Origin: Escherichia phage D6
Reading direction: 5' to 3' (one strand)
Length of the DNA: 64,000 bases
Sequence record: NC_050154.1
Below the pieces are notes generated by a model, which was not told the DNA's origin, made no database searches, and was given only the letters and a program-made list of their open reading frames with translations. Each line of letters opens with the position of its first letter. Position 1 is the stretch's first letter. The translations under genes were made by a program, and so were the position numbers. Below, piece by piece: positions 4,320 to 53,621 of the stretch.

Positions 4320-4359
4320 ACCCCTCCAGAAATAACATCTAATGCGCCACTAACTTAGT

Positions 4360-4374
4360 CAGTTTGTTATTTCC
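4360..4374 (-). promoter_or_regulatory. candidate late-promoter box (GGAAATAACAAACTG on minus strand)
   Basis: One mismatch to the box seen at 10964 and 44949; upstream of the holin-like gene. Confidence 0.45.
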
Positions 4375-10917: not shown

Positions 10918-10963
10918 ACGAACATAGCTCCTTCATAAGCAATGAACCAAAGGAGAGTATGCT

Positions 10964-10978
10964 CAGTTTGTGATTTCC
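10964..10978 (-). promoter_or_regulatory. candidate late-promoter box (GGAAATCACAAACTG on minus strand)
   Basis: About 45 bp upstream of the R-like start, followed by a CATACT -10-like hexamer. Confidence 0.5.
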
Positions 10979-18293: not shown

Positions 18294-18339
18294 TTATTCC
18301 TCCGAAAAGCAGGTATCTGTTCATTTTCCAGAGGATAGG

Positions 18340-18355
18340 GAGTGTGTGATTTGCG
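18340..18355 (-). promoter_or_regulatory. candidate late-promoter box (CGCAAATCACACACTC on minus strand)
   Basis: Upstream of the pmgB-like start; same AAATCACA core. Confidence 0.45.
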
Positions 18356-25217: not shown

Positions 25218-26915
25218 TCACTTTTTTTCGTTAACCTTGCCTGTCAGCATGTCGATAGCACCTTCTTTGGCACGAGTCAGACGCAGGCGGGTGAAGTAGT
25301 TTTCACCGTTGCGAGGATGTACTTCGTTGATGGCACTGCCCCAGAGAGTGGTACGGTTAACGAGAGACGGATTGGTTTCGTGCACGTAAGGGATTGCTGG
25401 GACTGCATCACCAGCAATCAGACCGGCTTTACCGATGCCTTCGCCACGCCCATAGAAGAAGATGTCATCCAGCCCGAAGTCATATCCCTGTGCCTGGAAT
25501 TGCTCACAGACAGGTTGCGGCACTTCGTAAATACGAATCGTGCCAAACAGGGTGCCGATGTACTGTACATACGGCGACTGAACGTAACCTGGTGCGATCT
25601 GGAAGTGCTGTGGAGGCAGAGAGCGCAGGAAGTTCGCGGCGTCACCACCAGCAAAGCCGCCACGAATACCCGTTGTCAGGGTACGATTTGCCATTTCTTG
25701 AGACAGAGCGTTTACTACGTGACGCAGGAGGCCGACCCAGGACTCATAGTTTTGAGCTTCCGGCAGAGCCACATCAAATTCACGACCATAAACGGTATGG
25801 AATACCAGGGTGCGCAGACGCATGATGTCGGTTTCATGGGAGATCCAGTTACGCATCGCGGAGAACTGAAGTGCCGCTAATTCAAGGCCGTGCTCACGGC
25901 TTAAATCGGATGCGGACATTACCGTGTGTTCGGAAGCAATTACGTACTGGGACGGACGAACTTCGTACTTACGCATAGCCTGGTTGATCACCGGAATCAG
26001 GCTTGGATTGCGCTCGATGTTAATTTCGACCTGAACAGCAATTTCAGTACCTTCTGGCGGAGCCTGGGTAAATGTAATGTCAATGACACCAGTGTCATAG
26101 GCAACTTTGGCAGTCGCTGAGAAAGCATTACCTTTGCTGTCTTTAGCATTGAAATAAAGGTTGCCATCGCCGTCGTCAACTTTGGACGGTTTGCGGTTGA
26201 TCAGCAGTTTGTTATAACCAGCGCGAAGCGGGCAGGATTGTCCCTCAAAATTTTGGATGTCGAACTGGAAGGTTTTGGTGCTGCCATCCCCTTTAGTGGA
26301 AAGGGTATACAGGCGCTTCATTTGAGAATAAACACCAGCTGACTGCATATTCAGTTCGTCACCTTGTTTGAAGGTGCCGAATTTTGTGCCTGCTACGTTG
26401 ACCAGTTCATAAATATTTGACTCGTCACGATCACAAGGAACAAAAGTACAGGCATCACTGGTAGCAGCGCCCAGAGAGGCAGGCAGAATTAGAGCAGCAT
26501 ATTGAGCAACTTTCATTACGCCGTCAGAGCTACGCATTGATTGCGCGACAGACTCAAACATTGCCTTACCCGTGCCTTCATGGGTATCACTGGCACATTC
26601 AGTCATCAAGCGTTCAAGAGCCATGTGTGCGTTCGCCAGGATGTCACTTGCCGGGTAATGACCATGTTGACGTTTATACTCATGCAGAGACATAGCCCAC
26701 CCACCAGTGATCTGACGAGCGACCTCTGGATTTACGCCTTCAAACATAGGCACTTTCTGGATTGCTTTATCCAGGTTTTCCATCATTACTGCCTGGTCAG
26801 CAATCATGTTTCCTGCTGCATCGGTGGTCGGATCGACGGTCATAGCCATGACGCTTGCCGCCCGATTCATAATCTCGCGCTCGCGATCACGAGCTGGCTG
26901 AATGTTTTTATTCAC
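25218..26915 (-). CDS. putative major capsid protein
   Basis: 565 aa, first gene after a late-promoter box; assignment by size and order. Confidence 0.45.
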   Translation of the reverse strand: MNKNIQPARDREREIMNRAASVMAMTVDPTTDAAGNMIADQAVMMENLDKAIQKVPMFEGVNPEVARQITGGWAMSLHEYKRQHGHYPASDILANAHMALERLMTECASDTHEGTGKAMFESVAQSMRSSDGVMKVAQYAALILPASLGAATSDACTFVPCDRDESNIYELVNVAGTKFGTFKQGDELNMQSAGVYSQMKRLYTLSTKGDGSTKTFQFDIQNFEGQSCPLRAGYNKLLINRKPSKVDDGDGNLYFNAKDSKGNAFSATAKVAYDTGVIDITFTQAPPEGTEIAVQVEINIERNPSLIPVINQAMRKYEVRPSQYVIASEHTVMSASDLSREHGLELAALQFSAMRNWISHETDIMRLRTLVFHTVYGREFDVALPEAQNYESWVGLLRHVVNALSQEMANRTLTTGIRGGFAGGDAANFLRSLPPQHFQIAPGYVQSPYVQYIGTLFGTIRIYEVPQPVCEQFQAQGYDFGLDDIFFYGRGEGIGKAGLIAGDAVPAIPYVHETNPSLVNRTTLWGSAINEVHPRNGENYFTRLRLTRAKEGAIDMLTGKVNEKK

Positions 26916-26971
26916 GGTTAAGCCCTAAATTCGGGCGCGGCGTGAAGGTTCTTTTGACGGGCTAACAATAC

Positions 26972-26987
26972 CTACTTTGTGATTTAG
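26972..26987 (-). promoter_or_regulatory. candidate late-promoter box (CTAAATCACAAAGTAG on minus strand)
   Basis: Upstream of the capsid-like gene, followed by TATTGT. Confidence 0.45.
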
Positions 26988-27044
26988 TCAATAGGTTTAG
27001 TAAAATAAAATCTATTAACACTCATGTTGTTATGTGATTTAATT

Positions 27045-27067
27045 TTGGTTTTCTAACACAAATCATT
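27045..27067 (+). promoter_or_regulatory. candidate C1-type operator (TTTCTAACACAAA)
   Basis: Member of a recurring TGTGTTAGAAA family; directly upstream of the ATG at 27074. Confidence 0.5.
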
Positions 27068-27073
27068 AGAGTT

Positions 27074-27466
27074 ATGGCGTATCGAATCTTTGTTTCGTAT
27101 AAAAATGGCGCTAAGAGCCACTCTCTGAACACAACAAGTCGCTTTCTTGTTGAGGCGCAGTTGGCATCAATTCTTGCCGAAAGTGAGATACTCTCGCTCG
27201 CTGAACGGATCGTTATCCAGTTTTCTGGTAGAGATATACTCAATGCCCCCGCCCTCACTCCGGCCTCCGAAGTTATGGAATCAATTAAATGGCCTGTATG
27301 CGGATGTCCTGCCAGGGTTGAAGAGCCGGTAACAGCAACGCTCTACATGCCGAAAGCAGTAAGAGATTGGCTTGCTATGGTTGGTAATGGGAAAGTCAGT
27401 GCTGGACTTCGCAAGTTAATTGAAATGGCAGATATTCCTGAGTTAAAAAATGCATGGCGACAATGA
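27074..27466 (+). CDS. hypothetical protein, operator-controlled
   Basis: 130-aa ORF right after the operator-like motif. Confidence 0.55.
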   Translation: MAYRIFVSYKNGAKSHSLNTTSRFLVEAQLASILAESEILSLAERIVIQFSGRDILNAPALTPASEVMESIKWPVCGCPARVEEPVTATLYMPKAVRDWLAMVGNGKVSAGLRKLIEMADIPELKNAWRQ

Positions 27467-27482
27467 GTAAACAAGGGACAAA

Positions 27483-27941
27483 ATGAGTCACGTTAACCCA
27501 TCAAAAACACAATATCGCTTAATGCTGGCGATCGCGTCAGCTATACCAACCAGCCTGAATCCCCCGGCAGGCTATCCCGCTGTTGTTGATGATTGTTTTC
27601 AGTATTACGGAGAAGACATCCTGAGCCAGTCAAAAGCGCTCAAGCAGTTATGTAAGGCAGGTATTCTTCACTGTATCGGAGATCCGGACGATTTTGTTGT
27701 TATGCTGGCGGATCGTGACTCTTTTCTACTGTCCTGGAAAGCTGGTGCGCGCGAAGCACGTTTGGGGAATGGTATTGGTTACATAGACTATAGCGATTGT
27801 CCGCTGGCATTTGCTGGTGGATATATGCATTGGCATGAGCGAAATAGGGGCCGTCAGCGTCAGTATCGTTTGAGTGACTTTAACGTCTGTCACGGTTTCG
27901 AAGAAGCTGACAGCCAGGACATCTGGCTTCAGGAGCCTTGA
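27483..27941 (+). CDS. hypothetical protein
   Basis: 152-aa ORF, second gene of a plus-strand cassette inside the late region. Confidence 0.55.
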   Translation: MSHVNPSKTQYRLMLAIASAIPTSLNPPAGYPAVVDDCFQYYGEDILSQSKALKQLCKAGILHCIGDPDDFVVMLADRDSFLLSWKAGAREARLGNGIGYIDYSDCPLAFAGGYMHWHERNRGRQRQYRLSDFNVCHGFEEADSQDIWLQEP

Positions 27942-28240
27942 TCCCCCTTCCCTTCCCAAATCTCCCTGTTTCTTTGGTTATTCAGTGCGTTTCGTTGGTT
28001 GCATTCGTCGATCGTGCTGAATAACTGTTCAGCGTATGTCGGATACTTGTTTAACAGCACTGGCGTGTCTTCTGGCACTAAACAAGGGGAGTAATCAATC
28101 AGATTTGCCTGCGGCTTGCTGGTGGCTTCTACGGTAATTTTCACTGGCACGCTGGTTGATGGCTTTTGCCCGTTCCCGCTGCATCCTGATAACGTCATCA
28201 GGCACACGCACATCGTTAATCCCAGCACGGCGTAACGCAT
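27929..28240 (-). CDS. o-spanin (outer-membrane lipoprotein), overlapping the i-spanin 3' end
   Basis: Signal peptide with lipobox LMTLSGC, Pro-rich body; start chosen at MRYAVLG. Confidence 0.65.
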   Translation of the reverse strand: MRYAVLGLTMCVCLMTLSGCSGNGQKPSTSVPVKITVEATSKPQANLIDYSPCLVPEDTPVLLNKYPTYAEQLFSTIDECNQRNALNNQRNREIWEGKGDQGS

Positions 28241-28568
28241 TTTCAAGGCGAGTGATTTCATTCTGGCTTTCCTCTCGTTGTTTGATTAGGTTGGCATTCA
28301 GTTCTGCTGTTTTGCGCTGGTACTCCTTTTCCAGTGCTTTAATTCTTTCGTTTTCGGTCAGCATGGCTGAGCGAGCGTTCTCACTTAACTGTAATGCGGT
28401 AGAAAGCGTGTTGTTCGTGCTTTCCAGTTGTGATTTTGAGTCTTCAAGCGATCGGACATACCTGATGTGTTCGATAACTGCCGTCGTTGTTCGGTAAATT
28501 CCAGAAATGGCTAAAAGCGCAATTACAATCAAAATTATCTTTTTCAAAACCATCCTCTTCAGGTTCAT
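28095..28568 (-). CDS. i-spanin (inner-membrane, Rz-like)
   Basis: 157 aa, N-terminal TM anchor then long coiled coil; overlaps the o-spanin gene. Confidence 0.7.
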   Translation of the reverse strand: MNLKRMVLKKIILIVIALLAISGIYRTTTAVIEHIRYVRSLEDSKSQLESTNNTLSTALQLSENARSAMLTENERIKALEKEYQRKTAELNANLIKQREESQNEITRLENALRRAGINDVRVPDDVIRMQRERAKAINQRASENYRRSHQQAAGKSD

Positions 28569-28623: not shown

Positions 28624-29430
28624 CTATGGTTCCTTTTTGGTGTTCTTTTGGAGCGCATCGATAACGCCTTGTGGCATGATTAAACTGATTGCCGGACTCA
28701 TTACTGCATCATCCAGTAGAGAACCAGTTAACGTGATGGCGACAGCGTTCTCTAAACCTTTGGTTGCCTGAGTGGTTGACGTTTTAATGCGACCTGTAAG
28801 GGCTACGACACTCTCACTTGCTGAGTTAATTTCGGAGAGTAAAGCTTCGGCGGCTGTCACTGCTTCCCGTAAAGCATCAATTTCATCCTGAGTAATGACT
28901 GGAGCCTGAGCGCCCCCAGCACCACCCTGTCCACCATTGCTATCACCACCACCAGCACTTCCGGCAGCTTCAATTTTTGCGTTAATGGCGTTCATGGCGG
29001 TTTTCAGAGCATCAAGTTTTAGCGCCGTCAATGCGTCCGTTAGAGATTGCGGAATGGAAACATTCCCCATTCCCTCAACAAGGGCGAAAGCAGGTATGGG
29101 GGTCAGCTCGTTACCTTTTGCGTAGCATTCCCAGCCAATCTTCATCTGTAACAGCTCTGATGGCTTGGTGTATGGGGAAAGAGAATCAGCCAGTAATGAA
29201 GACGCTTTGCTGGCCTCATTGAGCTGTTCAGAAAAGCCAAGCAATTGAGTAGTCCAGGCCGAAACAGAATCAGGATAGGTTTTATCGGCGTGAACTATTC
29301 CCTGTATGGCGCTGGCGAGCGATGAGGCTTTTACAGAAGCTGCTCGGCTTATGGTTATAGATTCTGGTGTAGAGATACCGGCATCTGACAGAATTTTGAA
29401 GGCTTTAACTTCACCTATTGAATCAAGCAT
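28624..29430 (-). CDS. hypothetical structural protein
   Basis: Start moved to MLDSIG; its ATG overlaps the TAA of the upstream gene. Confidence 0.5.
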   Translation of the reverse strand: MLDSIGEVKAFKILSDAGISTPESITISRAASVKASSLASAIQGIVHADKTYPDSVSAWTTQLLGFSEQLNEASKASSLLADSLSPYTKPSELLQMKIGWECYAKGNELTPIPAFALVEGMGNVSIPQSLTDALTALKLDALKTAMNAINAKIEAAGSAGGGDSNGGQGGAGGAQAPVITQDEIDALREAVTAAEALLSEINSASESVVALTGRIKTSTTQATKGLENAVAITLTGSLLDDAVMSPAISLIMPQGVIDALQKNTKKEP

Positions 29431-29714
29431 TATGCAACCTGAAAAATATCCTCGCCGTTGGCGATAACAGAACCACAAGAAAGCAGATCGCCTACACAGA
29501 CAACTCCCTTTCCACCTATCGAAAACCATGCTCGCGTCGATACAGCTGCCCCTGGATGTGCACTGTTACCGTCAGTGTGACTGGGAAACATGGCACCATC
29601 TACAACAACTGGCTTACCGTTAACGGTGAACCAGGGAACGGTTTCAGCTACCAGTCGCGGCGGAAATCCTCCGTGACCAGAACAAAGGGTGTCGCTGGTG
29701 GCTATTGCGCTCAT
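29430..29714 (-). CDS. PAAR-like spike-tip protein
   Basis: 94 aa with Gly/Cys pattern (CSGHGG, VNGKPVVVDGA, VCVGDLLSCGSVI). Confidence 0.55.
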   Translation of the reverse strand: MSAIATSDTLCSGHGGFPPRLVAETVPWFTVNGKPVVVDGAMFPSHTDGNSAHPGAAVSTRAWFSIGGKGVVCVGDLLSCGSVIANGEDIFQVA

Positions 29715-29789
29715 TCTTCACCTCCTGGTTATCCTTCTATTGTCATCACTTTGTTATTTCGTCATTCAAACGGAGAGTTAAATTTCGGA

Positions 29790-35477: not shown

Positions 35478-36054
35478 GGATTCTGTTATCTGGCTTGCCT
35501 AATGATTCGTCCATTAGGGCATCAGGCATGACAAAGCCCTGGCCGCTCCAGAGGCATGTTTTTTTGGTGTAGTTATCTTCCTGACAATATGCAGTGAAGA
35601 AGTAAGGGTGAAAGATGTGATCTGGCTTACGCCAGAATGTCGATATTTTGCTGACCGGATTTTCAATCATGTACGGACAACCGATCATCTTTGCAATGTC
35701 ATAACACTGCCAGACAACCTGCATTGCTTTGAACTGGAAAACCGGATCTTTATTAGCCTTGTCCGAAAACCAGCGCGCGCCGGAAACAGCCAGGTCAGTA
35801 CACGGTGGGAACCCGGCCAGAAACACGATGCGCTGCAAATTCTTACGGAGAAAAGCGTATACTTCATCGCTATCGATGATCGCACTAATACGCGTCAGAA
35901 CGGCACCTGATTGCATCCGCTCGTCACTGGTCGATAAGTGCTGTGGATCGACGATAGCGGCATCGACACCGTATTCCAGCCAGGGGGCAACCATTGCCCC
36001 CGTAAAATCACAAAGACTCACAACAAGCGGTCGGTTATTATCGTTCTGCTTCAC
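35374..36054 (-). CDS. C5-cytosine methyltransferase-like domain ORF (N-terminal half of the dmt-like locus); overlaps the Dam ORF in another frame
   Basis: GFPPC (PC motif) and IENP (ENV-like) motifs; start moved to a GTG with GGAGG RBS because the track start would overlap hrdC by ~90 nt. Confidence 0.5.
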
Positions 36055-36943
36055 CGCCAATGGCCTCCACCAGCGCGTTAAACAGTGCAGATAATTCGCC
36101 CGTAAAGAGCACGAAATCAGCATCAAATCGTTGTGCTACATCCTCCCGGTCGATATCGTCGTTCTGGTCATAGAGATCATCACAGAATGTCAGGGCTTTG
36201 ATACTCATATCATCGTTGACTCTGAACGACGCGCGGTCCATCCAGTTAATTGCAACGGTCGTAGCTACTTTCCCCGCCTCAATGTGAGACATAATCTCGT
36301 CGGACTGTAGATCAACTTTGTTGCAGCGAACGGCACCACCATTATCGAGCAGACCCTTTAATGTGGCGTCTTCACCTGCTGTAAATCCGGCAGGGAAGCC
36401 GTTTTTAAACCACTCGGTCATTGTAATTTCCAGCGGTTCGCGTGGTGTGAATGGAATGACAGGCAGGCTGCCGAGCGATTTTCGCAATAAAGCCAGCTGG
36501 TCCTCTGCCTTTTTGGCGCTGCTTGCCTCAACGAATACCAGATGGTTTCTGCGGTCGATCAGGATTTTGGCGAGTGATTTTCTCGTGAAAGCACGAGGAA
36601 GAAGAGAGTGAAGCACTTCATCCTTCAGCGAATCTTTTTCGGTCTTCTTCAGCTTTCTGTCTTGCTCTTCTTCAAGTGTCAGGATTTTTTTCTGTAACTC
36701 TTCTTTGAGCACTTGAGAAGGTAGGATTTTTTCCTCTCGTTTATGCTGTATCAGAAGAAAACCCTGGTATTCATGGGTGAGGTTGTCACCAAGAACGGAG
36801 GTCCAACCAGCTTTAGCCATATCCTGAGAACCGCATGGGGTAAACACAAACTTGCTAAGGGCTGCATTTACTTCTGCAGTATCCCAGCTAACTTCGCGTG
36901 AAAGACGATAGATGAAGATATTTTTGAAAGCGACTGATCTCAT
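36038..36943 (-). CDS. hrdC: RdgC-family recombination-associated protein (P1 hrdC-like)
   Basis: Near-colinear with E. coli RdgC: [91 protein letters not shown]. Confidence 0.9.
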
Positions 36944-36950
36944 GTCTCAC

Positions 36951-36992
36951 CATTTGTGTTAGAAAATACATATTAATTATCTAACACAAATG
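36951..36992. promoter_or_regulatory. palindromic pair of candidate C1-type operators just upstream of hrdC
   Basis: CATTTGTGTTAGAAAATACATATTAATTATCTAACACAAATG. Confidence 0.55.
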
Positions 36993-40204: not shown

Positions 40205-40354
40205 AGGTCGATCTGTCAGGTATCGAAAGGAAGATTTTCGGGAGATTGTGATTTTGGATGAAGGAGGGGGAATTCATAAAATGCACTTGCGCACAGTGCA
40301 ACGGTGCGCTATAGTTATGGCATTCGGTAATCATCACGGAGGATCAAATGACTA

Positions 40355-44856: not shown

Positions 44857-44948
44857 GCTTTGGCGTTATGACTCCCTACCGCGCTTCGGCTGAAAGTTAA
44901 TCGTCAAAAGAACCTTCAACGGGAGCCGTTAGCGCGATGGATTATGTG

Positions 44949-44963
44949 CAGTTTGTGATTTCC
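44949..44963 (-). promoter_or_regulatory. candidate late-promoter box (GGAAATCACAAACTG on minus strand)
   Basis: Identical 15-mer to the one at 10964; followed by CATAAT. Confidence 0.5.
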
Positions 44964-46803: not shown

Positions 46804-46835
46804 CGTGCGGAGAATCCGGTTATTTAGTAGTTAAA

Positions 46836-46854
46836 GCCCCGGACAGGCCGGGGC
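46836..46854. terminator. hairpin after the ant-like gene
   Basis: GCCCCGGACAGGCCGGGGC. Confidence 0.6.
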
Positions 46855-46862
46855 AACAGTAA

Positions 46863-47804
46863 TTAACTAACAATCCAGTCCGTAGCAACAACATCCTCTG
46901 GAGCTAAATCAATCGCATGGATTTTCCCATCCCGGATAGTGCGCCAGTGCTTTCGTGATCCACCTTCGGGCCACACCCATACACCTTCAGGCCAGGATGC
47001 TCGACGGCATACGATTGCATAGCCTGTTTTAATCCTCTCTCTGGCGGTATGCAACGACAGGTTTGCCTTTGGACTTTCAGGCACAGGATGGTGGATTGCC
47101 TGAAACATCCCCATCTTTGGATGATACCAGCGTTTATTGCGTGGTTCTGCCTCCGACATCACCTGCTTAAAGGCTTTCCGGAAGGGGGCCAGGGCCACAA
47201 TGGAGCGTTGCGCAAGCAAACCATCGGGAGTTAAAAACTCATGCGTATCGGTGGGAATCCGGTAAGCGTTAACCAGGTTTCGGCATTTGGCTTCAGTCAG
47301 GCCACATTTCGCCGCCAGCTGGCGGTAGCCAATGTAGCCTTCCGGAATATTGCCTTTCTTTATTTGCTCGAGTGTTTCAGCGACCATCGATACTTGTGCT
47401 GATACCTCGGCTACCTGGGCATTTACGGCGTTGATCCGGCGTTCATGCTCAAGATGCATTTGCGCCATTTCAGCCAGAATTTCGGCTTTTGATTTTAACT
47501 GTACCCGGGCATTCTCCAGTTCGCGCCAGCGGTCCACCAGCCGGGCGGTGAATTCGGGAGAGAGCTGCGCGACGACAACAATGCTGTCTCGTTTGCCTTG
47601 CTCGCCTTCGAAGACATAGACCGGATCTTTGACAACCTTCCCTAAGTTATTGATTCTTTCGACGAACTCATTTTGAGTTTCTCGGATGACACCGCTAGCC
47701 ATCATATTGCGAATGGTACGTAAAACATTGCCGTGACGACTACCAACTAACTCTGCAATATCTAGGCTACTCATTGTCGCTTTTTGAGAGATGGACAGAT
47801 TCAT
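46863..47804 (-). CDS. antirepressor-like protein (Rha/Ant-type N-terminus)
   Basis: 313 aa; N-terminal SSLDIAELVGSRHGNVLRTIRNM; sits downstream of an icd-like ORF and a c4-like RNA. Confidence 0.55.
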   Translation of the reverse strand: MNLSISQKATMSSLDIAELVGSRHGNVLRTIRNMMASGVIRETQNEFVERINNLGKVVKDPVYVFEGEQGKRDSIVVVAQLSPEFTARLVDRWRELENARVQLKSKAEILAEMAQMHLEHERRINAVNAQVAEVSAQVSMVAETLEQIKKGNIPEGYIGYRQLAAKCGLTEAKCRNLVNAYRIPTDTHEFLTPDGLLAQRSIVALAPFRKAFKQVMSEAEPRNKRWYHPKMGMFQAIHHPVPESPKANLSLHTARERIKTGYAIVCRRASWPEGVWVWPEGGSRKHWRTIRDGKIHAIDLAPEDVVATDWIVS

Positions 47805-48019: not shown

Positions 48020-48079
48020 ATTGGCAGCCTCCTTTTGCTAATTTAAGGAGCTACCGCGTGAGGTCTCAATCTCAATGGC

Positions 48080-48155
48080 GGTAGCACTGGCTGGGTTGAG
48101 ACTACCGGCGCAAAAGGGAACCGGCCTGCCTTTCGGCAGCCCAGCCAGCACTACC
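48080..48155 (-). ncRNA. candidate c4-type antisense regulatory RNA (~76 nt)
   Basis: 16-bp closing stem with two G-U pairs enclosing a GAAA-looped hairpin; a loop GUCUCAA is complementary to two UUGAGAC sites, one just before the icd-like RBS. Confidence 0.4.
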
Positions 48156-48206
48156 ATTGATCTTGGAGCTATACGCTACGTATGGCTGTGCGATGGCATG
48201 ACACAA

Positions 48207-48228
48207 AAAAAGACGCTTTCGGCGTCTG
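48207..48228 (-). terminator. intrinsic terminator upstream of the c4-like RNA
   Basis: Minus strand GACGCCGAAAGCGTC followed by TTTTTTT. Confidence 0.6.
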
Positions 48229-48817
48229 TGTCGCCTTTTGCATTATCCGGGGTCTCAATCCCGGCACCCGTTTTTCTAAGGTGCCGTAGAAATATACCCC
48301 ACGATAATGCCAGGGCGCAACAGTCAGTATTTTATGCTTTGGCGGATTTCTTCCGGGCTTGCTTGCAGGCGTAGGCCATTGCTTTAGCTTTCACTTCATC
48401 CAGCTTCCCGGTGATCACTTCTTTTCCGAGAGTGACAAACCAGTCATAGCAACCGCCAGTGATGTTCTGGATTTGAAAGTTGAGGTAGCGAACTGTCATT
48501 TTGACCCCCCCAGCGCGAGTAAAGAATGCAGATTATCGCGTGAGTGGCGGACAACGAGTGATGGGAAAAGACAGTAGCTGTTCATAGTGTAGTGACTCCT
48601 TGCTTTCGGAGCCGCCATCGACTGTTCCACGGTCTGGTGGCGGCGCAATAAAGGCTGGAACACCGTGAGTCAACGGGGGCTTTTCAGCCACCTATATTGC
48701 ACCGCCATAGGTATAGCGGCGGCAATAATACGAAAAACTAAACAGTTTGTCTCAAAAAGTTGACCGGTGTGCCAATCGGTAGTGAATGTACATCGGAGAA
48801 ATTTACAATTCAACTTA

Positions 48818-48839
48818 AAATGTTAGAAAACTAATTTAT
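48818..48839. promoter_or_regulatory. candidate C1-type operator upstream of the immI-like unit
   Basis: AATGTTAGAAAACTAATTTAT, 17/19 identical to the motif at 62787; overlaps the ref-like stop. Confidence 0.5.
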
Positions 48840-49409: not shown

Positions 49410-49472
49410 GATGGCTGCCTCTTACTTTTCAGCGATTTTTCTATGATTGATCAAAATGATTAGATATTCAAA

Positions 49473-49493
49473 ATTGATTTTCTAACACAAAAC
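49473..49493. promoter_or_regulatory. candidate C1-type operator in a divergent promoter region
   Basis: ATTGATTTTCTAACACAAAAC. Confidence 0.55.
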
Positions 49494-53523: not shown

Positions 53524-53550
53524 TCAAATCATTTACGCACTCAAAATTAC

Positions 53551-53580
53551 GTTAGAACATTGATTTTAGTTTTCTAACAT
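53551..53580. promoter_or_regulatory. inverted pair of candidate C1-type operator half-sites
   Basis: GTTAGAACATTGATTTTAGTTTTCTAACAT, ~40 bp upstream of the 53622 ATG. Confidence 0.5.
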
Positions 53581-53621
53581 ATTATTTTACCGCTCGGAAC
53601 AAAACAGAGTCGGTATACATT

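Follow-up and report, generated by a model that had tools for sequence, protein, structure and literature searches.

The two small genes lying between the capsid gene and the spanin genes of Escherichia phage D6 probably form a bicistronic, C1-controlled early accessory operon of a D6-like phage-plasmid, a reading to which a probability of roughly 0.6 is assigned. The window analysed here, i.e., the whole stretch of 64,000 nucleotides taken from sequence record NC_050154.1, is 99.9% identical to pYU39_89, a D6-like element related to P1 that has been described as a D6-like plasmid prophage with 99% identity to D6. Both genes are located on the plus strand and start with ATG; ORF1 (27074–27466) encodes 130 aa and ORF2 (27483–27941) encodes 152 aa. 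On the minus strand, they are flanked on one side by the gene 23 capsid homologue (25218–26915) and on the other by an Rz1/Rz pair consisting of the o-spanin gene (27929–28261), which has an LSGC lipobox and a match to the Rz-like phrog_456, and the i-spanin gene (28095–28568), which matches phrog_214 (E 7.6e-16). An earlier sequence-only reading of this DNA had placed two plus-strand ORFs of 130 and 152 aa between a capsid-like gene and the spanins, with the end of the second overlapping the end of the o-spanin gene. Its coordinates and sizes proved exact, and the tail-to-tail overlap amounts to 13 nt (27929–27941). Conservation of the overlap is lacking, as an Enterobacter relative has no overlap but a canonical bidirectional terminator between ORF2 and the o-spanin gene, directly after ORF2, where it marks the end of the unit.

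The arrangement of the two ORFs points to joint expression. The 16-nt gap between them contains the Shine–Dalgarno sequence of ORF2, AAGGGA (27473–27478), and in the Enterobacter relative the two reading frames overlap by 4 nt (GTGA). Co-transcription of ORF1 and ORF2 as a bicistronic unit is therefore predicted from this layout. Both are real genes, because they have full-length matches in PHROG and low dN/dS values. ORF1 matches phrog_7830 (E 9e-79) and ORF2 matches phrog_8101 (E 8e-98) from end to end. The dN/dS ratio is 0.07–0.21 for ORF1 and 0.02–0.03 for ORF2, compared with 0.04–0.06 for the capsid gene, and both genes are under purifying selection. ORF1 is absent from the 2019 re-annotation of pYU39_89. 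The two PHROG families carry no annotation, and a regulatory class, genomic contexts, and selection data are added to them here.

On the downstream side, the window shows no intrinsic terminator that would separate ORF2 from the spanins, and an Rfam scan of 26700–28300 returned no known RNA family. A hairpin with a 14-bp stem and no U-tract begins 35 nt past the ORF2 stop codon (27976–28026), in the 3′-terminal part of the o-spanin gene. It has a folding z-score of −2.2, and its pairs are kept across relatives, with changes on both sides at 4 of 17. Early and late transcripts would converge here, and the structure may keep them apart; the evidence is weak, since the hairpin falls within coding sequence.

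The regulatory assignment rests on a predicted operator, TTTTGGTTTTCTAACACAAA (27043–27062, plus strand), which lies between a candidate promoter and the ORF1 start codon, 12–31 nt upstream of the ATG, and is overlapped by a weaker inverted half, CTCTAATGATTT (27060–27073, minus strand). The sequence-only reading had noted an operator-like motif ahead of the cassette, and the motif does recur exactly within the 64 kb, far above chance. The 14-mer TTTTCTAACACAAA at 27049–27062 has two further exact copies, at 36953–36966 (minus strand) and 49478–49491 (plus strand), against a calculated chance expectation of about 5e-4 exact matches, and a copy with one mismatch is located at 36977–36990 (plus strand). 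A weight matrix built from 13 sites, including the one at 27043–27062, gave 11 matches in the window (six of them training sites) compared with a mean of 2.6 in shuffled sequences, and all strong matches are intergenic. With 26.8 bits, the site ahead of ORF1, itself a member of the training set, is among the best-scoring in the genome. Further copies occur in the remainder of pYU39_89. Ahead of the ORF1 ATG, six D6-like plasmids with DNA identities as low as 74% all have the TTTTCTAACA core unchanged, and it is also present in two more relatives, i.e., eight in total. The resulting consensus is AATTA(A/G)TTTTCTAACA(C/T)A.

In D6, this motif precedes ref, isrK-c4-icd-ant, rdgC-dam, the lpa homologue, and c1 (87684–88721 of pYU39_89); in P1, too, c4 has a C1 operator. 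The P7 record annotates C1 operators as Op(ref), Op(lpa), Op(c1a–d), Op(dam), and Op(ban). Because its copies occupy the places of the C1 operators of P1 and P7, the motif at 27043–27062 can be assigned, by position and recurrence, as a D6-type C1 operator, and D6 C1 would be expected to bind there. Its sequence is specific to D6 and differs from the P1 consensus, ATTGCTCTAATAAATTT, which does not occur in the window even when three mismatches are allowed. The P7 operator ATTGCTCTAATAAATAT and the D6 operator have a TCTAA core in common, and 10 of 17 positions are identical when the two are aligned there. Two other candidate elements near the ORF1 start did not stand out: the minus-strand 17-mer AACTCTAATGATTTGTG adjoining the ATG has no second copy, and the TGTGATTTA repeat (26978 and 27033) is not enriched, with 25 matches compared with 20 expected.

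For transcription of the cassette, a candidate sigma-70 promoter was read from the sequence on the plus strand, composed of TTAACA (27015–27020), a 17-nt spacer, and TTTAAT (27038–27043). It stops at 27043, where the predicted operator starts, and five of six relatives have largely kept its two hexamers. A consensus promoter scan did not call it, because there is no A at −11; the scan proposed a second candidate instead, TTGTGA-18-TAAAAT (26977–27006, plus strand).

The neighbouring genes belong to a different regulatory class. A D6-type late promoter of gene 23 (26965–26985, minus strand) consists of the box AAATCACAAAGT, 3 nt, and the −10 element TATTGT, an organization analogous to that of LP23 annotated in P7, where a −22 box is followed by a −10. 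This promoter and that of ORF1 are arranged back to back, 58 bp apart. The late-promoter pattern AAATCACAAAGT-N4-A-N3-T has seven matches in the window at up to two mismatches, compared with 0.74 expected, and none of 100 shuffles reached seven. All seven boxes are on the minus strand, 5′ of late operons, including the two that flank the cassette, gene 23 and upfC-upfB-spanins. A pattern scan of the window found no such box on the plus strand upstream of ORF1. An early unit inside a late block is not unusual here, because early and late operons alternate along the window. The proposal of a repressor-controlled, early-class unit among late genes is therefore borne out as a prediction, as the cassette appears to share its operator with ref, c4, rdgC-dam, lpa, and c1 and lacks a late box.

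A further suggestion, that the cassette encodes a late activator, did not hold up. What makes it unlikely is a true Lpa homologue elsewhere in the element, encoded at 84395–84787 of pYU39_89, upstream of pacA and outside the window, and provided with a paired operator of its own; this protein matches phrog_1704 ("Lpa-like transcriptional activator", E 2.8e-60). Neither ORF1 nor ORF2 is similar to Lpa, as their PHROG matches are limited to phrog_7830 and phrog_8101, and ORF2 is lost or replaced in D6-like plasmids whose examined flanks still carry the late genes. The precedent for such an activator, P1 Lpa (gene 10, late promoter activator), is likewise a small protein (130–150 aa) under the control of a C1 operator, but it shows no sequence similarity to either protein, and the D6 element keeps its own Lpa upstream of pacA, as P1 does.

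More broadly, the cassette could regulate late transcription or the lysis–lysogeny switch, for instance with ORF1 acting on the 158-bp intergenic region shared with gene 23 and ORF2 serving as a cofactor. This possibility is improbable, even though it explains several features of the locus: the predicted C1 control, which is also that of lpa; the possible DNA-binding C-terminus of ORF1; the back-to-back position of the ORF1 and capsid promoters; and the retention of ORF1 beside gene 23 in every D6-like variant seen, including those that have lost ORF2. However, one box is common to all seven late promoters, including those distant from ORF1, so that an extra local factor is not needed. In addition, ORF1 is the faster-evolving of the two genes (44–80% identity), P1 and P7 lack a homologue of it although their late system is otherwise analogous, and its assignment to the ribbon-helix-helix proteins is weak.

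This assignment concerns the C-terminus of ORF1, a predicted soluble protein with a pI of 8.6. Its AlphaFold2 model (mean pLDDT 79) comprises an N-terminal α/β domain (residues 1–70) and a basic C-terminal segment (86–120) with a ribbon-helix-helix-like pattern; in the monomer model, helices 94–103 and 108–118 come after an extended TLYMP segment, and residues 86–93 are unstructured. The order of β-strand, P, helix, G-x-S, and helix resembles that of P22 Arc, Mnt, CopG, and ParG, and P93, G106, and S109 are invariant. In contrast to the known ribbon-helix-helix repressors, the motif is C-terminal, behind a 70-residue α/β domain. A single hhalign comparison of the ORF1 C-terminus with a hand-assembled set of seven ribbon-helix-helix sequences gave P 0.008 in the correct register, that of P22 Arc. 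Conversely, Pfam returned no ribbon-helix-helix domain in ORF1 at E values up to 10, sequence and profile searches of the PDB with ORF1 and with its C-terminus yielded no meaningful match and no ribbon-helix-helix protein, and Foldseek with the model gave no significant match and none to this fold. The C-terminus may form a ribbon-helix-helix domain, with weak support. The best PDB match of the model, T4 Dmd (Foldseek E 0.25), was treated as noise, and the best BFVD matches are unnamed phage proteins of 60–85 aa (E 0.01–0.05). The ORF1 family comprises no more than 18 database clusters, all of them lacking a Pfam domain, and is confined to the D6-like phage-plasmids of Enterobacteriaceae. UpfA of P7 (upf62.1) was considered as an equivalent, since it also has 130 aa, and was rejected because it belongs to phrog_1453 and is encoded on the spanin strand.

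ORF2 is likewise predicted to be soluble and has a pI of 5.4. Its conserved motifs are FL.S(F/W).AG..EA..G, Y.DYS, AF..G..H, and CHGF. The family is represented by 23 sequences among 1.84 billion proteins, and a scan of a genome collection with a closer ORF2 alignment retrieved one species only. No signal peptide or membrane span was seen in either protein sequence, and neither has a family match in Pfam, NCBIfam, or PADLOC. Megablast and tblastn against a phage collection, from which D6 itself appears to be absent, gave a single match, a 34% hit of ORF2 in Vibrio phage douglas 12A4, where the homologue is found amid early DNA-metabolism genes (RdgC, oligoribonuclease). In 16 other phage-plasmid-sized contigs, ORF2 homologues are located between cre and ref, and the relatives lie within long co-directional early arrays adjoining ref and DNA-metabolism genes. 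In 17 other elements, the homologue has no ORF1 partner and its neighbours are variable. These contexts mark the ORF2 family as a rare one among the early genes of P1-like phage-plasmids, and an effector role would fit its surroundings. The AlphaFold2 model (mean pLDDT 45) is of low confidence, and its Foldseek matches (best E 0.14) are meaningless; a PDB profile search with two ORF2 alignments gave nothing meaningful, and a Pfam scan of 19 ORF2 relatives gave chance matches only. A literature search with the protein accessions found no paper. The homology and structure searches that the sequence-only reading had proposed thus placed both proteins in PHROG families and yielded neither an annotated function nor a fold relative. 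The two genes do not resemble virion structural or lysis genes either: they lack a late-promoter box, their products are predicted to be soluble, and they match only PHROGs of unknown function. As a separate observation, the constraint on ORF2 exceeds that on the capsid gene, which is awkward for a purely accessory role.

The interval between gene 23 and the spanins is a variable accessory locus. In one plasmid, an ImmI-like antirepressor cassette stands in the place of ORF2, and the truncated match seen there recurs in three more; in a metagenomic relative, ORF2 has been lost next to TnpB. Late genes are still present in the examined flanks of the D6-like plasmids without ORF2, and ORF2 is thereby shown not to be needed for carriage of the element as a plasmid. 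The Raoultella version of the cassette is longer and also encodes a Zn-ribbon protein and a Tad2-like protein; the Tad2-like neighbour occurs in one lineage only, and its match (E 6e-5, 23.9 bits) falls just below the 25-bit Pfam cut-off. Among the options that had been offered from the sequence, an accessory gene is the best fit.

This variability, with gene swaps between conserved modules, together with the opposite strand and a candidate promoter of its own, would also suit a moron expressed from the prophage for superinfection exclusion or anti-phage defence, in which the operator-like site represses weakly or has another role. Such a moron is improbable. The operator is among the best-scoring of the genome and invariant across relatives, PADLOC gave no match, and the relatives of ORF2 are embedded in early arrays near ref and DNA-metabolism genes. 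A foreign origin of the cassette was also considered and rejected: its GC and GC3 match those of the rest of the element, and it is therefore not a recent import, which likewise speaks against a moron. Finally, a type II toxin–antitoxin or addiction module (ORF1 as antitoxin, ORF2 as toxin) stabilizing the plasmid prophage is very unlikely, despite two small, neighbouring, translationally linked genes, a possible ribbon-helix-helix in the first, the phd-doc and higBA modules already present in the element, and the persistence of ORF1 where ORF2 is lost, as for an orphan antitoxin, since neither the two proteins nor the 19 ORF2 relatives match any toxin, antitoxin, or defence model (Pfam, NCBIfam, PADLOC), an operator for the prophage repressor implies that the genes are silent in the plasmid, whereas addiction requires the opposite, the genes are not obligately linked (each also occurs without the other), and a dN/dS of about 0.02 and solitary occurrence are not expected of a toxin gene.

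A C1-controlled early accessory operon would work as follows. In the plasmid-prophage state, D6 C1 bound at 27043–27062, abutting or overlapping the sigma-70 promoter, would keep ORF1 and ORF2 off. Upon infection or induction, C1 would be inactivated and host RNA polymerase would produce a single mRNA for both genes, so that expression is predicted to be early. This transcript would meet the Lpa-dependent late upfC-upfB-Rz-Rz1 operon head-on, and at late stages the cassette would probably be damped by antisense read-through from these late genes. Two soluble cytoplasmic proteins would be made, neither virion nor lysis components. ORF1 would most likely be a small dimeric protein that binds DNA via a C-terminal ribbon-helix-helix and targets the divergent promoter region in front of its own gene, either for autoregulation or as a local modulator. 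ORF2 would be an accessory early effector, involved in host takeover or counter-defence and placed outside the core lytic programme.

A bolder version of the same scheme can be envisaged, in which ORF2 is a new kind of early effector of P1-supergroup phage-plasmids and ORF1 a new ribbon-helix-helix regulator coupling the cassette to the capsid promoter. It is unlikely as a whole. If true, ORF2 would represent a counter-defence or host-takeover family that is rare, conserved from Vibrio to Enterobacteriaceae phage-plasmids, and without any detectable sequence or fold relative. Likewise, ORF1 would fuse a ribbon-helix-helix to a small domain common in uncharacterized phage proteins.

The regulation of D6-like phage-plasmids has so far been inferred mostly from P1. 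As in D6, one master-repressor operator is scattered over the genomes of P1 and P7 (ref, ImmI, dam, lpa, c1), and early units are interleaved with Lpa-dependent late operons. The early operons of these phages (Op(ref)-ref, Op(dam)-upf64.0-hrdC-dam, and Op(lpa)-lpa-pacAB) likewise have an asymmetric operator of about 17–20 bp upstream of a short early operon. The content of the locus differs: neither ORF1 nor ORF2 has a homologue in P1 or P7, and in P7 the equivalent position past the spanins is occupied by upf62.1, on the spanin strand, and then by oriR-repA-parAB. The results are consistent with the current understanding of P1-type regulation, and the layout of the cassette is normal for phages of this type.

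Phage-plasmids of the D6 type are frequent in E. coli, Salmonella, and Shigella, and matches were found in 121 plasmid records and in 101 of 5426 complete E. coli genomes. For this group, working consensus sequences are now defined for the predicted D6 C1 operator and for the D6 late promoter, and two "hypothetical" genes can be placed, by prediction, in the C1-controlled early class. ORF2 is a reasonable candidate for the screening of early phage-plasmid effectors.

The two plus-strand reading frames, ORF1 (27074-27466, 130 aa) and ORF2 (27483-27941, 152 aa), lie exactly where the sequence-only reading had placed them, between the capsid gene and the spanins. According to S1 Table of PMC6799933 and RefSeq, from which the neighbourhood gene names were taken, the sheath gene 22 and an Ig-like gene come before capsid gene 23 (25218-26915, minus strand) in window order. 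On the other side, the minus strand encodes the o-spanin (27929-28261), the i-spanin (28095-28568), upfB (28624-29529) and the PAAR gene upfC (29430-29714), past which parM/stbA is found on the plus strand. The overlap between the ends of ORF2 and the o-spanin gene, also claimed earlier, is tail to tail and measures 13 nt. The 1.1 kb surrounding the cassette is 99.9% identical to the Salmonella plasmid pYU39_89 (NZ_CP011430.1), a D6-like plasmid prophage with 99% identity to phage D6, P1 being distantly related (PMC6799933); the window is antiparallel to that record (window x corresponds to pYU39_89 ~63288-x). The same 1.1 kb is matched in 121 plasmid records of ~90 kb each from Escherichia, Salmonella and Shigella, and plasmids with a match occur in 101 of 5426 complete E. 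coli genomes; neither set contains a chromosomal match.

As judged by sequence comparison, both reading frames are real genes. ORF1 matches phrog_7830 (E 9e-79) and ORF2 matches phrog_8101 (E 8e-98), each end to end. Comparison with D6-like plasmids of 75-85% DNA identity gives dN/dS values of 0.07-0.21 (ORF1), 0.02-0.03 (ORF2) and 0.04-0.06 (capsid gene); ORF1 evolves faster than ORF2. An AAGGGA ribosome-binding site is located in the 16 nt between the two genes, and in an Enterobacter relative they overlap by GTGA, which argues for a single transcription unit. RefSeq annotates both as hypothetical (ORF1 as WP_000331485.1). In the 2019 re-annotation of pYU39_89 only ORF2 is listed (SE14_05092); ORF1 (pYU39_89 ~35822-36214) is missing, as S1 Table holds no CDS between 35805 and 36418. 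Some records start ORF1 14 codons further upstream, an extension that is closed by a TGA in the window.

Each 14-mer of the 158-bp intergenic region was checked for recurrence elsewhere in the window. This search singled out TTTTCTAACACAAA at 27049-27062, which has two more exact copies and one single-mismatch copy, with ~5e-4 exact matches expected by chance (our own arithmetic). The extended D6 sites, with the consensus AATTA(A/G)TTTTCTAACA(C/T)A, often pair up in inverted orientation (TTAGA-N16-TCTAA), the two centres being separated by about two helical turns. Such pairs are found at 36953-36990 (next to rdgC-dcm-dam), at 49454-49491 (the gene of a Ref-like endonuclease, start 49409, phrog_2321, and a divergent early operon) and at 53546-53583 (an early operon with an HNH nuclease, 53564). 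One more, in pYU39_89 sequence that the window does not cover (L003 22285-22320), is 86 bp upstream of the lpa homologue. Further sites are located next to the gene adjoining cre (62785) and, as a single site outside the window, directly upstream of c1 of pYU39_89. A strong site at 48817-48836 is upstream of the isrK and c4 RNAs of the ImmI region, with icd and ant next in line; on the minus strand Rfam detects the C4 antisense RNA (48074-48161, 76 bits) and the isrK Hfq-binding RNA (48206-48284, 59 bits). The annotated P7 genome has C1 operators marked at ref, lpa, c1 (four sites), dam and ban, and the D6 motif agrees with this annotation at all four comparable positions. The P7 operator ATTGCTCTAATAAATAT and the D6 motif have the TCTAA core in common and, aligned on it, are identical at 10 of 17 positions. 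At ORF1 the upstream partner is only degenerate (TTATG). Ahead of ORF1, six plasmids ranging down to 74% identity all keep the TTTTCTAACA core unchanged, and two further relatives have it as well. The spacer around it drifts. The "operator-like motif" originally noticed is therefore recurrent, occupies P7 C1-operator positions and has an invariant core; from these comparisons we conclude that it is a D6-type C1 operator (27043-27062), to which C1 would be expected to bind.

The likely sigma-70 promoter of the cassette is TTAACA-17-TTTAAT (27015-27043), ending at the operator start; a promoter scan called an alternative at 26977-27006. A different motif, AAATCACAAAGT followed by three bases and a -10-like hexamer, was found while tracing the driver of capsid gene 23. 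Its candidate consensus, AAAT(C/A)ACAA(A/C/T)(G/C)T, 3 nt and the hexamer, yields seven sites in the window at up to two mismatches versus 0.74 expected, a number reached by none of 100 shuffles. All are on the minus strand, directly upstream of morphogenetic operons: the tail-fibre region (4352-4372), gpR (10956-10976), pmgB-sit (18332-18352), gene 23 (26965-26985), upfC-upfB-spanins (29739-29759), gp7 (40234-40254) and mat (44941-44961). The motif is the counterpart of the P7 "-22 box plus -10" late promoters, such as LP23 (AAGTGACTT-N4-TAAAAT), with a box analogous to the P1/P7 "-22 box" AAGTGACTT but different from it. By this distribution, Lpa-type late promoters flank the cassette on both sides (26965-26985 and 29739-29759), the cassette itself lacking one. 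As a separate observation, an exact 17-nt repeat, TGAAGGTTCTTTTGACG, occurs at 26943-26959 (+) and 44902-44918 (-), two matches versus 0.19 expected at up to three mismatches. Placed by the late promoters, the copies are in the predicted 5' leaders, sense in mat and antisense in gene 23, which would give a 17-nt complementarity between the two leaders. Around the capsid copy, a block (26923-26958) hardly varies among six relatives ranging down to 74% identity; the repeat may be bound by a protein or take part in RNA-RNA pairing.

The suggestion that the cassette encodes a late activator was not borne out. In pYU39_89, a gene annotated lpA (84395-84787), upstream of pacA, matches phrog_1704, "Lpa-like transcriptional activator" (E 2.8e-60), and has its own operator pair; the role is thus already filled. 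Neither ORF1 nor ORF2 resembles Lpa, and one box is common to all late promoters regardless of genome position.

At the 3' end, no intrinsic terminator follows ORF2 in the window, and early and late transcripts are therefore predicted to converge. A conserved hairpin with a 14-bp stem (27976-28026), lacking a U-tract, is found just past ORF2 in the o-spanin 3' coding end. In the Enterobacter relative, ORF2 is free of any overlap with the o-spanin gene; the space between the two contains a canonical bidirectional intrinsic terminator, AAAAGGCCGC-ATA-GCGGCCTTTTT (L022 2643-2680).

The ORF1 family is restricted to D6-like elements of Escherichia, Salmonella, Klebsiella, Raoultella and Enterobacter, and none of its 18 clusters contains a Pfam domain. 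The AlphaFold2 model (pLDDT 79) begins with an alpha/beta domain (1-70), whose only resemblances are to small phage proteins without a name and, weakly, to T4 Dmd. It is followed by a low-confidence linker and three helices (94-103, 108-118 and 122-129). The segment TATLYMP-KAVRDWLAMV-GNGKVS-AGLRKLIEMA looks like ribbon-helix-helix proteins in its succession of strand, P, helix, G-x-S and helix; in this C-terminal segment (pI 9.4) P93, G106 and S109 are invariant. No library searched recognised it; the sole positive came from hhalign, with P 0.008 and the register of Arc, against a hand-assembled set of seven ribbon-helix-helix references. The assignment may serve as a lead and does not amount to membership.

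ORF2 has no relatives in Pfam, NCBIfam, PADLOC or the PDB, and when 1.84 billion representative proteins were searched exhaustively with a profile, only 23 relatives came up, nearly all of 135-152 aa. Throughout the family, Y41, F81, G88, G95, Y100, F110, G113, H116 and C136-H137-G138 are invariant. The GC content is unremarkable, and fold searches were uninformative because the AlphaFold2 model is poor (mean pLDDT 45). In 15 viral contigs (46-106 kb) and a 91-kb Rosenbergiella contig, homologues belong to an array of co-directional early genes, either lying between cre and ref or following them closely; Vibrio phage douglas 12A4 has its homologue between rdgC and an oligoribonuclease gene. 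At all these loci the upstream gene varies and no ORF1 homologue is present. Within the D6 group, CP043746.1 has ORF2 precisely swapped (window 27463-27943) for a minus-strand cassette resembling the immunity region ImmI (1.6 kb, L024 4664-6304), with genes for a small regulator, an Icd-like protein and an ORF6N antirepressor. Over 665 nt this cassette shows 95% identity to the ant region that the window itself carries (46833-47497). The exchange alters the final o-spanin codons as well, and three further plasmid records give the same truncated match. A metagenomic relative lacks ORF2 and has an adjoining TnpB. In a Raoultella ornithinolytica plasmid (L026/L027 4865-5826), ORF2 is followed by two extra plus-strand genes, for a Cys-rich protein (116 aa, phrog_11861) and a Tad2-like protein (96 aa, phrog_7385; PF11195 E 6e-5, just below the Pfam cut-off). 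The phrog_7385 domain recurs at residues 252-312, the C-terminal end of Ant as encoded in the window (46863-47804).

Taken as a whole, the preferred reading, to which we give a probability of roughly 0.6, is that C1 would silence the cassette in the plasmid prophage and that, upon C1 inactivation, host RNA polymerase would produce a bicistronic early mRNA. ORF1 would probably bind DNA as an autoregulator or local regulator, ORF2 would be an accessory early effector common to other P1-like phage-plasmids, and antisense read-through from the late promoter of upfC would damp the cassette at late stages of infection. Most of this weight is placed on the regulatory class and on the view that the products are neither structural nor Lpa; specific protein functions receive much less. 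An auxiliary late or switch regulator is quite unlikely, and a moron expressed in the lysogen slightly more so, each being at odds with at least one tested feature. The same applies to a toxin-antitoxin pair, the least probable of the three.

It is doubtful whether ORF2 is the founder of a new class of early phage-plasmid effectors. The cassette adds one more case to a known arrangement, a C1-operator early operon among the late operons of a P1-type genome, and encodes two uncharacterised proteins.
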